Part shown: one piece after another, positions 37,702 to 44,671 of the stretch | Layout of the letters: each line of letters starts with the position of its first letter | How positions within the stretch are numbered: the stretch's first letter is position 1 | Assembly: GCA_043825615.1 (NCBI GenBank) | Contig: JBDRRS010000013.1 | Location: 68,325-132,324 of the forward strand | Source of the DNA: a bacterium | Lineage (GTDB): Bacteria; CG03 | DNA length: 64,000 bases | Direction: 5' to 3' | Position numbers and translations under genes: made by a program | The notes under the pieces: generated by a model | Told to the model about the DNA's origin: nothing | What the model saw: only the letters and a program-made list of their open reading frames with translations | Databases searched by the model: none

Positions 37702-37886
37702 TTTTTTTGATTCTCAGCGGGACAGAATAGCCCTCATTTTGTTCGTCTTTATTTTTCCCTGTAATGGGCCATAAAAACCGCCGCGAAAATTGGTATAAAG
37801 ATTCTCAGGCAGCAAATTATATCTACACAAAATCACCTGCCTGGCGAAGCGGCGACACCGCGTGGAAGGTCAGTCGGATTGGCTTG

Positions 37887-38336
37887 TTAAACTTTATTAT
37901 TTTTTAAATAATCAGCGTCCAATTTATCTTTTTTTCTACCAGTGGATTGTTTATTTTTTATGAGGTTTTCTTTTGAAATAAATGGTATAGATAGGTTTTC
38001 AATTTCTATATTTTCTCTGGATTTGTACGCGTCTTGGAAATTTACTCCGTCAATATGTGTGATAATATCAATGCGCCGGGGTGCTACGCCAATTTGAAAA
38101 ATAATGCCTTTTTTGGTAAATGTATCTTTGGTTATCTCGGAAAGAGGAGCGCCAAATTCAGAAAGAGAGAGATATATTTTTTGGGAATTATTAGCAGATG
38201 CCTCTACCCATATATCAAAATCACCAGTTGCACGCGGATAACCGTATGCACCCATGGCATAAGCACCAACGGTGAGAAATTTCACTTCATTGTTCAATAA
38301 GATTTGTAACATTTCTTTGTAATCTTCGTTCAACAT
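37887..38336 (-). CDS. nucleotidyltransferase-fold protein (minimal NTase; TA/defence-like)
   Basis: 149 aa. 'VGAYAMGAYGYPRATGDFDIWV' is the G[SA]..G..-D.D pol-beta NTase motif. Overlaps the upstream small ORF by 50 nt. Confidence 0.5.
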   Translation of the reverse strand: MLNEDYKEMLQILLNNEVKFLTVGAYAMGAYGYPRATGDFDIWVEASANNSQKIYLSLSEFGAPLSEITKDTFTKKGIIFQIGVAPRRIDIITHIDGVNFQDAYKSRENIEIENLSIPFISKENLIKNKQSTGRKKDKLDADYLKNNKV

Positions 38337-38475
38337 AATTCACTCCTCTGAGCGACCAAATTTCCGCTGTAAGTTCCCACATAAAGGAGACAAGCTCCTT
38401 TGGGGACGCTTCTACAAAGGAATCGTCTTTTTTGGTAAGTTTCTTAAGATTTGCGATTTTTCTTCTTACTTTCAT
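38287..38475 (-). CDS. small ORF co-transcribed with the NTase (putative partner protein)
   Basis: 62 aa. Starts at 'ATGAAAG' 6 nt after a TATAAT, so likely leaderless. No family recognised. Confidence 0.35.
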   Translation of the reverse strand: MKVRRKIANLKKLTKKDDSFVEASPKELVSFMWELTAEIWSLRGVNYVERRLQRNVTNLIEQ

Positions 38476-38581
38476 ATTGATATTATACCATATTTTATCA
38501 ATTTTTCATTTATGTCTAACATTTTTATCATAATTTTCACACAGAAAGCCATAGTTTCAGAATTTTCAGGAATAAATCCAT

Positions 38582-38710
38582 CTGCTTCTTCTCCATAAGA
38601 CATATCTGGCCCTCCTGAAATTATTCCACGTGGAATAATTTGCCTTTTTTCCGACGACGCCGTTTTAAGGGGTACCCTTTTTGGCTGTTATTCCATGTAA
38701 GATTGCCCTC
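38582..38710. promoter_or_regulatory. conserved ~130-nt non-coding element, copy B (20-nt palindrome ATTATTCCACGTGGAATAAT at 38630..38649)
   Basis: ~85% identical to 281..410; the palindrome arms covary around a fixed CACGTG core. Lies upstream of the NTase cassette on the minus strand. Confidence 0.5.
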
Positions 38711-38835
38711 GAAAAAAGTACCTGTCCCCTCTTTATATTTTTATAAGACCATTCCGCAGTATAGTGCGGAATGGTCCGCACTATTCCGCATAGACGCGCG
38801 CAATTGTGCCAAAGACAACCGCACCCGGCCCCTTT

Positions 38836-43030: not shown

Positions 43031-43202
43031 CTCTTATTCCCCATTTAAGAGAAGGTTCTGCCAAGAATGTTTTAATCTATTCCTGATCTCTTTAAATGGA
43101 CATCTATCAAAAAACGATGGAGAATAACTTCTAAAAAGCATCATCATCTCAACATATGAGACGATAGCTTTGTAGAATACTGCGAAATAAATATGAACTA
43201 GG

Positions 43203-43234
43203 TCTGTCTGTCTGTCTGTCTGTCTGTCTGTCTG
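43203..43234. repeat. (TCTG)8 tetranucleotide microsatellite upstream of the kinase/regulator operon
   Basis: Perfect 8-unit repeat ~170 nt upstream of the kinase start codon, in the 3' flank of the sigma54-GIY-YIG gene. Confidence 0.9.
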
Positions 43235-43289
43235 CAAAATTATTTCCATATCAGTGTTATTTTACAAAAAATGAATGATTTATCAAACT

Positions 43290-44537
43290 TCATGGGCTTA
43301 CCTTGTTGCATTTTGGCGGGGCGCCAAAAGTTGAGCAGAATAATTTATATAATCTTTTTTCTTCTTTCTTCCAATCTTTATGAAAAACAATATATCTGAA
43401 AAGACATCTGTTATCTTTGAGAATTTCCCTTATCTTTCCATTTTTGCCTTTTGCTCTTGAATGTTCTTTTAATCTTTTTCTTAAATTCTGGGCGCTGCCA
43501 ATATAGAAAACTCCTGTTTTGTCATTCTCATATTCTATTTCCTTATTTGCCGAATGGAGCTCATAAACTCCCGAATTTTCTACCGCATTACTATCAATTG
43601 AGGAAAATGTAAGCGGATATGGGCAAGAGAAATTTTCTCCAAATGGTGGATAGGTGTAGTTATGTACTCTTTTCCGGGAAGATGGAATCCCTAATTCTTT
43701 CCTGTAAAAACCTATTGAACGTTTAGAAACCGAAATACCGTAAGCAACTTTTAATTTGTCTTTTAACTCTCCATCGCTATAAGTTTTTAATATTTTTCCC
43801 GATTTTAAATCCTGTCTCTCTCCATTAAGAATCTCTTTAACAAATCTTTTCACTGTCTCTTTTCTTTTATGAAAGAAAAATTTTAGAGGGAGTTCTTTAC
43901 CCTGAGGAGTAATAAGCGATTTACCTTTAGCAATCCTTGAAATCCAGCCCTCACTAATTTTTAATGGAGCAGACCCTGTTAGAATCGAGAAGTTGTTCGC
44001 CTTTAACGGGGTAAATGAACTAATCTGTATAGATAAATCTCTCAGGGTCAAGGGTTTTAACTCAAAATCATCTGCTGTGAGAAAGTAATCCTTTTGTAAT
44101 GCTGTTATTCCATTGAGTATCCGGTGCGTAAACTCATTTCTGGTATTAATATGTCTCAGTTTCCAAAGCAGGAGGTGAATTTGGTAATTTTCCTGGTCGG
44201 TTGATCTGTTATCTAAGATAAATAATCTTTCGCTATCTATCATGTATTTCTTAGCAAACCCGGCCCGGGGATATCTGATAGAAAAAGAACCCTGGTCATT
44301 AGTTATTTCAGCTAAAACATTGTTAGATCTAACTTCTGCCGTCTTTTTTGACTCTAAAGCAGCTACTTCTTTTACAGTTATAATATTATTTTCCATAAGT
44401 CTACAAAAAAGAGGGCAACTTTCTACTGTTTCAATATACTTCTCAAATCTATCAAGCGATAGTTCCAAGAAATTGGAAAGAATGATTTTTCCAATAAGCT
44501 TTGCCTGTTTAGGGGACCATCTTTTTCCAATTCGCAC
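43290..44537 (-). CDS. sigma-54 (RpoN) DNA-binding-domain-like module fused to a C-terminal GIY-YIG nuclease domain
   Basis: 415 aa. Residues ~150-312 carry 'LKPLTLRDLS', 'LPLKFFFH' and an RpoN-box-like 'ISVSKRSIGFYRKELGIPSSRKR'. Residues ~318-415 carry 'GVYEL' and 'VFYIGSAQNLRKRLKEH'. No region I and no core-binding domain. AT-rich. Confidence 0.6.
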   Translation of the reverse strand: MRIGKRWSPKQAKLIGKIILSNFLELSLDRFEKYIETVESCPLFCRLMENNIITVKEVAALESKKTAEVRSNNVLAEITNDQGSFSIRYPRAGFAKKYMIDSERLFILDNRSTDQENYQIHLLLWKLRHINTRNEFTHRILNGITALQKDYFLTADDFELKPLTLRDLSIQISSFTPLKANNFSILTGSAPLKISEGWISRIAKGKSLITPQGKELPLKFFFHKRKETVKRFVKEILNGERQDLKSGKILKTYSDGELKDKLKVAYGISVSKRSIGFYRKELGIPSSRKRVHNYTYPPFGENFSCPYPLTFSSIDSNAVENSGVYELHSANKEIEYENDKTGVFYIGSAQNLRKRLKEHSRAKGKNGKIREILKDNRCLFRYIVFHKDWKKEEKRLYKLFCSTFGAPPKCNKVSP

Positions 44538-44671
44538 ATTGTCTTAGTTTCTTAATTCAACAAAATATGGCCTGGTTCCAACAGACACTCTTTAACATAC
44601 CATATTTCTGTTGAAAGCTGTAAGTATAATTTGGTTTTTTGGGACACTCTACTTACAATTAGATGGTTTTT

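Follow-up and report, generated by a model that had tools for sequence, protein, structure and literature searches.

Gene content and composition of the segment

The 64,000-nucleotide stretch of DNA analyzed here (the window; contig JBDRRS010000013.1 of GenBank assembly GCA_043825615.1, positions 68,325 to 132,324) is from a groundwater Elusimicrobiota genome, and all coordinates without a genome name refer to it. Between the conserved, convergent operons that end with prs and begin with DUF1844–gltX, the window carries an AT-rich block of about 6.9 kb. From its composition, its gene content and a comparison with related genomes, we consider this block to be, probably, a recombination hotspot with cassette turnover, in which interchangeable low-GC (guanine plus cytosine) modules lie between the two operons. 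The block is built as a mosaic from no fewer than four units, each acquired independently: a MenT-like gene pair, a BrnT/BrnA toxin–antitoxin unit (BrnTA), a recombinase and a signalling operon. The genes and the limits of the block are as follows (ORF, open reading frame).

36766–37701, plus strand: prs, which closes the conserved left flank (tsaD, glmU-like, prs), with homologues 97, 90, 86, 77 and 75% identical in the same gene order
37709–44651, no strand: strain-variable low-GC segment, delimited by blastn homology breakpoints against relatives and by composition
37887–38336, minus strand: orf149, a 149-residue minimal nucleotidyltransferase resembling MenT1 and TM1012, candidate toxin (AlphaFold2 and Foldseek; GC3, the GC content at third codon positions, 0.28)
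38287–38475, minus strand: orf62, a 62-residue upstream partner ORF, candidate antitoxin (from position only; also a gene call in the Logan assembly)
38836–39377, minus strand: BrnTA unit, with BrnA at 38836–39066/39102, BrnT at 39047–39334/39358 and a promoter-like site at 39377–39350
39614–40453, plus strand: XerA/XerC-like tyrosine recombinase of 279 residues (Pfam Phage_integrase, E = 2.5e-15), the sole plus-strand gene in the segment
40567–40941, minus strand: CheY-like single-domain response regulator (Response_reg, E = 1e-30)
40931–43030, minus strand: sensor histidine kinase, 4HB_MCP-HAMP-PAS-HisKA-HATPase (Pfam)
43034–43289, minus strand: kinase leader, with a promoter-like site at 43286–43259 and a small ORF at 43249–43034
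43290–44537, minus strand: s54GIY, a sigma54 DNA-binding domain joined to a GIY-YIG nuclease domain (Pfam)
44672–45037, minus strand: DUF1844, which opens the conserved right flank (DUF1844-gltX-hisG-tsaB/rimI-tsaE-thiL; Pfam and synteny)

These assignments agree largely with an earlier annotation made from the letters of the window and their translations (the sequence-only reading). The response regulator, the sensor kinase, the sigma54–GIY-YIG fusion and DUF1844 that it had named are all confirmed by Pfam, the tyrosine integrase is present with its full catalytic set, and the BrnT/BrnA pair is upheld by a strong Pfam match for BrnT and a weak one for BrnA. Its two-gene nucleotidyltransferase cassette stands as regards the fold; there is no Pfam match, and the partner is a candidate antitoxin by position.

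The GC content of 37709–44651 is 0.372, compared with about 0.455 in the remainder of the window. The sequence-only reading had proposed a plot of GC and codon usage, and in this analysis no other 6.9-kb stretch of the window is as low in GC as the block: windows of this size, taken without overlap, have a mean of 0.456 ± 0.015, with a minimum of 0.416. Sliding windows fall from 0.46–0.49 to 0.34–0.41 across ~37.5–44.5 kb. The eight genes of the block have a mean GC3 of 0.339 versus 0.527 ± 0.036 in 36 core genes (Mann–Whitney p = 7e-8), and their codon usage is deviant (Karlin B 0.47–0.74 versus 0.32 ± 0.09). The claim that every gene of the block is lower in GC than the flanks holds for seven of the eight, with GC3 values of 0.27–0.39 and z scores of −3.7 to −7.2 against the core genes, but not for BrnA, the compositional exception (GC3 0.483, z = −1.2). 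A stretch of core-like GC (0.47) also lies inside the block at 38640–38852. Elsewhere in the window, low GC marks the accessory genes for Mrr (572–1444, GC3 0.175) and a PIN-domain protein (17998–18423, GC3 0.28). Because these two genes lie outside the block, low GC is a mark of the accessory gene pool generally in the source genome.

The same site in related genomes

A protein search with prs recovered the graded series of Elusimicrobiota homologues given above, and ~20 kb was compared from each of the three close relatives (L103, L104 and L106; prs 97, 90 and 86% identical). Both flanks are collinear with the window in all three. In blastn alignments, the DNA homology ends at 37701–37708, up to 7 nt beyond the prs stop codon, and restarts at 44652–44669, ~3–20 nt beyond the DUF1844 stop codon. 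The limits of 37702 and 44560 set by the sequence-only reading are therefore right on the left side (37702–37708), but on the right side homology to the relatives puts the edge at ~44651. Between the two breakpoints the relatives carry the following.

L103, 3.7 kb: AAA_14/DUF4143 ATPase gene, Unstab_antitox gene, a different BrnTA, 179-residue ORF
L104, 2.3 kb: 48-residue stub, BrnTA, VapBC
L106, 4.0 kb: 149-residue ORF, AAA_14 gene, BrnTA, 406-residue ORF

The 149-residue ORF beside prs in L106 was considered as a homologue of orf149 and rejected, the two being not homologous. The variable segments are low in GC in all four genomes (0.35–0.39 in the relatives and 0.37 in the window, with flanks of 0.44–0.47). 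In more distant relatives, the site holds a methyltransferase gene and a gene for a large unannotated or PMT-type protein.

The sequence-only reading had taken the block for accessory DNA between two housekeeping operons, and this is borne out by its variation among strains with collinear flanks. Rather than being conserved in all relatives, the whole block is absent from the site in 7 of 7 related loci examined, and the recombinase, orf149 and orf62 genes were found in none of the relatives' loci. An empty site, with prs directly beside DUF1844–gltX, had also been anticipated; none was found among the relatives examined, in which the site is always filled with other genes, those of L103, L104 and L106 being cassettes of 2.3–4.0 kb. 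The species representatives of GTDB gave only prs homologues of at most 56% identity, without the prs–DUF1844 arrangement, and a metagenome scan with gltX gave a single close match of 1.7 kb.

Cassettes and flanks have diverged to different degrees. The closest relative, L103, has flanks 93–97% identical to those of the window and no cassette in common with it; the BrnTA of the window has no DNA match there. In L106 the corresponding BrnTA segment (38840–39377) is 94.8% identical, with flanks of only 79–85%. Likewise, the AAA_14 gene and its adjoining repeat core (described below) are 92.2% identical between L103 and L106, with flanks of 79–81%, and stand at different distances from prs in the two genomes. 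L104 retains a 123-nt 3′ stub of AAA_14. Since cassette identity exceeds flank identity both for BrnTA and for AAA_14 with the core, we take these cases as cassette exchange. The alignments show gain, loss and swapping of modules between lineages, faster than the flanks diverge, and they place several of the exchange breakpoints at or beside the spacer repeat or at the 3′ end of DUF1844.

The DUF1844 end itself is altered in L103, where ~50 nt of it (14016–14075 and 14662–14720) are duplicated around the inserted 179-residue ORF, with the distal copy keeping the ancestral downstream sequence. The duplication is att-like and bears the mark of an insertion at the DUF1844 3′ end; the insert is only ~0.6 kb and carries no integrase. 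Islands that target and duplicate the 3′ end of a gene are similar in this ~50-nt duplication and in that the recombinase of the window lies in the segment beside DUF1844. They differ in that no duplication is present in the window, and in the small, integrase-less insert of L103.

A structured repeat between the modules

The modules are separated by a repeat that is structured, undescribed and not in Rfam. Its occurrences in the window are as follows.

38612–38737, plus strand: spacer repeat, with core 38612–38692, 24-nt palindrome 38618–38641 and tail A to 38737 (blastn, nhmmer and covariance model)
311–392, plus strand: second copy of the repeat core, 3′ of the low-GC Mrr gene (108 bits)
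37717–37757, plus strand: remnant of the repeat 'tail B', 3′ of the nucleotidyltransferase cassette and right after prs (local alignment)

The copy at 38612–38737 lies between BrnA and orf62. One copy was found in L103, three in L104 and two in L106, giving eight in the four genomes with the copy at 311–392 included. All copies point the same way with respect to prs and lie antisense to the cassette genes. In the sequence compared they occur only in the variable intervals and beside the Mrr gene, and none was found in the core sequence of the window (57 kb or more), in the relatives' flanks or in the distant Elusimicrobiota loci. An unfiltered covariance-model search of the 64-kb window returned only the two copies (108 and 104 bits); a marginal match at 17847–17909, near the PIN-domain gene, looked like noise on inspection. 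The Mrr gene, some 37 kb away from the block, is a type IV restriction gene on the minus strand ~2 kb from the tRNA-Val at 2657–2730, and together with its repeat copy it is probably a second variable locus.

The repeat starts with a 10-bp hairpin with an ACGT cap. Across the copies, 97.8% of the hairpin cells are paired, three pairs show changes on both sides, and the covariation score was reached by 0 of 500 shuffles. The only unpaired cells are C–A, which read as G–T on the cassette-sense strand and give a weak hint at which strand folds. Additional helices drawn by eye were discarded, since RNAalifold supports the first hairpin only. On the 3′ side of the hairpin, ~50 nt are near-invariant and are followed by one of two tail types; the core, 80 nt long, is 76–99% identical between copies, and core and tail together span up to 125 nt. 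Identical cores can be joined to different tails: the second copy of L104 and the first copy of L106 agree at 98.7% over 77 nt, beyond which they diverge. The tail-B remnant right after prs aligns over 40 nt with the copy tail at 394–432 (z = 9.4 versus shuffles). In the Logan assembly of the source run, contigs are broken within the repeat (38639/38666), as a multi-copy sequence would lead one to expect.

The repeat has no Rfam match and was not found in the viral contigs searched. It resembles repetitive extragenic palindromic (REP) sequences, bacterial interspersed mosaic elements (BIMEs) and miniature inverted-repeat transposable elements (MITEs) in having a short palindromic hairpin with conserved flanks and in occurring in several copies per genome, always between genes. 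It is unlike them in that the copies, in the 64-kb window and ~20 kb per relative, lie only in variable accessory loci and in one orientation, and in that the conservation extends far past the hairpin. Possible half-copies at 39456–39480 and 44619–44650, as from a crossover at the palindrome center, gave p ~0.05–0.08 against shuffles and were dropped. By eye, a second recurring spacer module (CTCCAAGkTATArAGC ... TTTCAACAAAAGA) is seen in several gaps between genes of the arrays, among them 39385–39447 and, in L104, 12060–12150 and 12900–12990.

The toxin–antitoxin modules

The BrnTA unit has the features of a type II toxin–antitoxin system, a BrnT domain with an adjacent small antitoxin of the BrnA/CopG type. 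BrnT matches Pfam BrnT_toxin with E = 1e-19 and 70.9 bits (cutoff 34.5). The match of BrnA is weak (E = 0.019, 15.8 bits, cutoff 26.1); its size, overlap and position are as expected, and the partner proteins of BrnT in the relatives match CopG/BrnA. The promoter-like site of the unit is the best of the region (11 of 12 positions), and its −35 box forms the right end of the segment shared with L106.

Neither orf149 nor orf62 matches a sequence family, Pfam included. The AlphaFold model of orf149 (predicted local distance difference test score 87) was matched by Foldseek to MenT1 (8an4, 1.8e-4) and TM1012 (2fcl, 5.6e-4), with template-modelling scores of 0.59–0.69 against MenT1. Its G..GD.D motif does not vary among 27 homologues, in which G24, G38, D39 and D41 are constant. 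The family is very large, with over 5,400 matches, and the best 120 of those listed are 77–92% identical and come from Omnitrophota, Nitrospirota and Elusimicrobiota, as well as from a Heimdallarchaeota bin; the identity to one Omnitrophota protein is 87%. For prs, among the matches listed, identity outside this Elusimicrobiota lineage is at most 61% (next best after the series of 66–97%). Set against this value, the cross-phylum identity of 77–92% points to a recent transfer of the orf149 gene between phyla, and the spread of the family implies what appears to be rampant horizontal transfer.

The signalling operon

The kinase and regulator genes overlap by 11 nt and form a two-component pair, a HisKA- and HATPase-containing kinase beside a receiver protein. 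Simple-sequence repeats had been noted from the sequence in both genes; they are present in the kinase gene and in its leader, but the response regulator gene has none. In the kinase gene, perfect (CTG)9 (41782–41809) and (TCT)11 (42024–42056) tracts lie in frame and encode poly-alanine and poly-glutamate linkers, and these runs are kept in the kinase of L113, a locus with a homologous module, with 8 and 11 residues. In the leader, a (GTCT)8 tract, (CAGA)8 on the other strand, lies at 43202–43234 inside an ORF of 71 codons, which begins just after the promoter-like site and ends 4 nt short of the kinase ATG. The (CAGA)n tract is at the same position in L113 (~28 copies, 2286–2430) and in a further locus, L114 (at least 28 copies, 6700–6851), so that the leader is a plausible candidate for a phase-variable switch. 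Contingency loci with tetranucleotide repeats are known in Haemophilus and Neisseria. The leader resembles these in having a perfect (CAGA)n tract within a small ORF that immediately precedes an operon, with 8 versus ~28 or more copies between relatives; the likeness is limited in that the length difference here is between relatives and an on/off effect on the kinase operon is only putative.

The s54GIY protein matches only Sigma54_DBD of the sigma54 domains (residues 191–290). Its score against the rpoN equivalog is 62.6 bits (cutoff 277), and Pfam finds neither a sigma54 core-binding domain nor an activator-interacting domain, so the protein does not qualify as RpoN. The GIY-YIG domain (PF01541) scores 27.1 bits (cutoff 22.6) and has the catalytic residues of that family: across 24 members, with identities as low as 28%, G323, Y325, Y345-I346-G347, R355, E393 and N411 are invariant and H359 almost invariant. 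A segment resembling the RpoN box is also kept across the s54GIY family, which comprises 56 clusters from several phyla, with some members in bins labelled as archaeal, Chloroflexota and Pseudomonadota.

The gene for s54GIY stands directly upstream of, and co-directional with, PAS kinases and single-domain regulators in L113 (66% identical) and in two other loci, L115 and L121 (40% each). L113 holds a homologue of the whole module with 74% DNA identity, also low in GC; its kinase is 69% identical over the C-terminal 459 residues and its regulator 64%. The N-terminal sensor of the kinase is swapped: the window kinase has a 4HB_MCP-transmembrane-HAMP arrangement, and that of L113 (3326–5233) has about eight tandem 'GRxALLHILEDxE' repeats. 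The PAS and catalytic parts are identical in the two kinases. Between L113 and L114 the block is 97.8% identical and differs from 186 nt upstream of s54GIY onward; with the window counted, the neighbour on the upstream side of the s54GIY block is thus different in each of three cases. A literature search returned nothing on sigma54/GIY-YIG fusions. The conserved pairing of s54GIY with a two-component system, and the hypervariable tetranucleotide leader, are new.

The recombinase and the ends of the right-hand segment

The recombinase starts at the ATG at 39614, behind AGGAGG; this 279-residue product is on record, and the 288-residue product of a GTG start is not. Its best family is XerA_Arch of NCBIfam (105 bits, cutoff 220), and its nearest structures are XerA/XerC-like (PDB 4a8e at 4e-12). 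The match to the integron integrase model TIGR02249 is 37 bits (cutoff 265) and covers residues 28–199 only. The catalytic residues R, K, HxxR, H and Y are all aligned.

Three features near the recombinase and at the far end of the segment bear on its possible mobility.

38738–38839, no strand: GC-rich insert of ~100 nt that L106 lacks, containing a 12+6+12 palindrome (38747–38776) and a third half-site
39416–39443, plus strand: 28-nt imperfect inverted repeat, left arm (tentative)
44605–44632, minus strand: 28-nt imperfect inverted repeat, right arm (tentative)

The inverted repeat scores 31 versus a null of 18.8 ± 2.7 (2000 dinucleotide shuffles, p = 0.0025, one of 12 comparisons). A motif resembling the right arm is also found upstream of the s54GIY gene in L113 and L114, and this arm may be a regulatory site instead. 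Because of the 12 comparisons and of this similar motif, we keep the repeat as tentative. The palindrome of the GC-rich insert reads GACCATTCCGCA GTATAG TGCGGAATGGTC and has a single occurrence in the sequences compared; it possibly resembles a core site of dif- or lox-type tyrosine recombinases, or a terminator.

Short direct repeats at ~37.7 and ~44.55 kb had been predicted by the sequence-only reading. None significant was found linking 37702–37886 with 44538–44760, nor 39359–39613 with 44538–44760. A duplicate of the DUF1844 end was absent from the recombinase side in the window, and no tRNA gene lies near the block, the only one of the window being the tRNA-Val gene.

Other features of the window

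A c-di-GMP-I-GGC riboswitch (67 bits) lies at 22263–22410 on the minus strand, upstream of a low-GC gene for a protein of 1095 residues (18900–22187, minus strand) with ~17 tandem 75-nt repeats at 20410–21681. The PIN-domain gene at 17998–18423, also on the minus strand, is an accessory toxin-like gene outside the block.

Interpretation of the mosaic

Chromosomal integration or recombination hotspots between core genes ('genomic islets') are known in bacterial pan-genomes, and the hotspot described here is of this known kind, a variable accessory hotspot. It shares with them the fixed core flanks, a content that varies between close relatives, a turnover faster than the divergence of the flanks, and a low-GC cargo rich in toxin–antitoxin and nuclease genes. 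It differs from them in that a structured repeat, specific to the clade and new, stands between its modules, in that no empty site was seen, and in that one of its occupants is a complete signalling operon rather than defence or mobility cargo.

Homologous recombination through the spacer repeats and the DUF1844 end would be the simplest mechanism of exchange, the repeat serving as portable homology or possibly as a recombinase site. The toxin–antitoxin pairs would keep the array in place, and the signalling operon would have moved in as a block, possibly through the action of the adjacent recombinase.

Several points weigh against a hotspot with cassette turnover. No empty site was observed, which leaves insertion, as distinct from replacement, a presumption. 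The comparison covers four genomes of the clade, with ~20 kb per relative, all sequences are metagenome assemblies, and the repeat could be one that occurs between genes generally, or else a terminator. The breakpoints coincide with the repeat in some cases only: one end of the BrnTA block lies 5 nt (L106) to ~100 nt (window) from the repeat, and the other end is at its own −35 box. Finally, low GC may be a general trait of the accessory pool rather than a sign of recent foreign origin.

The explanation that survives best beside the hotspot, and is compatible with it, is that the right-hand 5.2 kb (~39416–44632; recombinase, regulator, kinase and s54GIY) is one element mobilized by its recombinase, inserted between BrnTA and DUF1844 onto an older array. 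The recombinase has a complete catalytic set and lies at one end of the segment, reading inward; neither it nor this gene set is at the site in the three close relatives. The 28-nt inverted repeat brackets the segment, and the duplication in L103 indicates that the DUF1844 end can accept insertions. However, neither a direct repeat nor a duplicate of the DUF1844 end is found on the recombinase side in the window, the inverted repeat has the weaknesses noted above (its similar motif in L113 and L114 comes without a recombinase in their examined sequence), and the L113 module runs on into more regulator and kinase genes, again without a recombinase. A single mobile element of this kind is possible, though not likely.

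A further explanation is an integron-like cassette platform. The hairpin of the repeat would be a site folded as single-stranded DNA, at which a recombinase, local or acting in trans, would move circular cassettes. The counterparts are the sedentary chromosomal integrons and the integrase-less attC clusters (CALIN), exemplified by the superintegron of Vibrio cholerae and its VCR repeats, and toxin–antitoxin cassettes are abundant in the former. In the four arrays, 22 of the 23 genes are co-oriented, the recombinase being the sole gene on the opposite strand and, in the window only, divergent from the BrnTA and nucleotidyltransferase cassettes; some integron arrays, like those of the relatives, have no recombinase. 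The cassettes lie between repeats with a similar 80-nt core and dyad symmetry, the hairpin is kept by compensatory changes, the mosaics of cores and tails are as expected of a crossover at a fixed point, and many of the cassettes are toxin–antitoxin pairs.

Two defining features of integrons are lacking. The recombinase is not IntI (37 versus 265 bits for TIGR02249, in the N-terminal half only), and the attC motifs R″ (RYYYAAC) and R′ (GTTRRRY) are present in 0 of 8 repeat copies on either strand. The hairpin takes up 24 nt of the repeat and is short and perfect, not the bulged fold across the whole site that is typical of attC. Three repeat-bearing relatives have no recombinase in the array, the cassettes carry their own promoter-like sites, and homologous recombination through the 80-nt core (76–99% identical) would give the same mosaics. 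A literature search found nothing on integrons in Elusimicrobia. We therefore regard an integron-like platform as unlikely. A variant, in which cassettes would be captured by a non-integron route, with the XerA-like recombinase swapping modules at the hairpin repeat and the DUF1844 3′ end, and with s54GIY and the kinase gated by (CAGA)n forming a new phase-variable cassette, seems to us equally improbable.

The sequence-only reading had also considered a defence island. Two toxin–antitoxin pairs, one of them MenT-like, and a GIY-YIG nuclease would fit a cluster of anti-phage systems, as would the AAA_14/DUF4143 and PIN genes at the site in relatives and the Mrr gene beside another repeat copy. 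PADLOC, however, did not detect any known defence system: its matches were all weak (E from 2e-5 to 6e-3) and fell on candidate or generic entries (PDC-S14 and HEase, both through the GIY-YIG domain, and receiver-domain entries), and ~4 kb of the block are a signalling operon, with a kinase linkage conserved in unrelated lineages. There is no DNA match to phage records or viral contigs, viral contigs hold no relatives of s54GIY or the recombinase, and plasmid DNA matches only ~100 nt within the kinase gene. This idea is accordingly rather improbable, and only the two toxin–antitoxin pairs could plausibly act in defence.

The favoured interpretation of the sequence-only reading, that the whole 6.9 kb is a single genomic island brought by its integrase, fares worse. 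The uniformly low composition, the intact tyrosine recombinase and the absence of the whole block from relatives speak for it. Direct repeats are lacking at its ends, there is no nearby tRNA gene, and the integrase is internal. Moreover, BrnTA and the spacer repeat are at the same site in relatives without the integrase, and the closest relatives differ from part to part: L106 for BrnTA, L113, at another locus, for the s54GIY–kinase module, and other phyla for orf149. A single island is therefore very improbable. Its second suggestion, of two nested insertions, is right in that the region is composite, but at least four modules are juxtaposed rather than two nested. An assembly artefact is just as improbable: the source is a metagenome-assembled genome in which a chimeric join of strains or genomes is conceivable, and contigs of the same run break in the repeat and at (CTG)n (41809), but such breaks at repeated or low-complexity sequence are expected of a de Bruijn graph, two assemblies are 100% alike across prs-orf149-orf62 and across BrnA-BrnT-recombinase-regulator-kinase, and independently assembled relatives have the same kind of architecture.

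In summary, a hotspot with cassette turnover is the reading that we favour. The same two breakpoints enclose entirely different cargo in genomes whose flanks are 93–97% identical, which makes this a well-resolved case of gene flux within a groundwater phylum that has been sampled poorly. The repeat, which marks module boundaries, may serve as portable homology, as a site for a recombinase or as an insulator. If it is true that the repeat is a recombination site, it would provide a second, non-integron route to cassette arrays.

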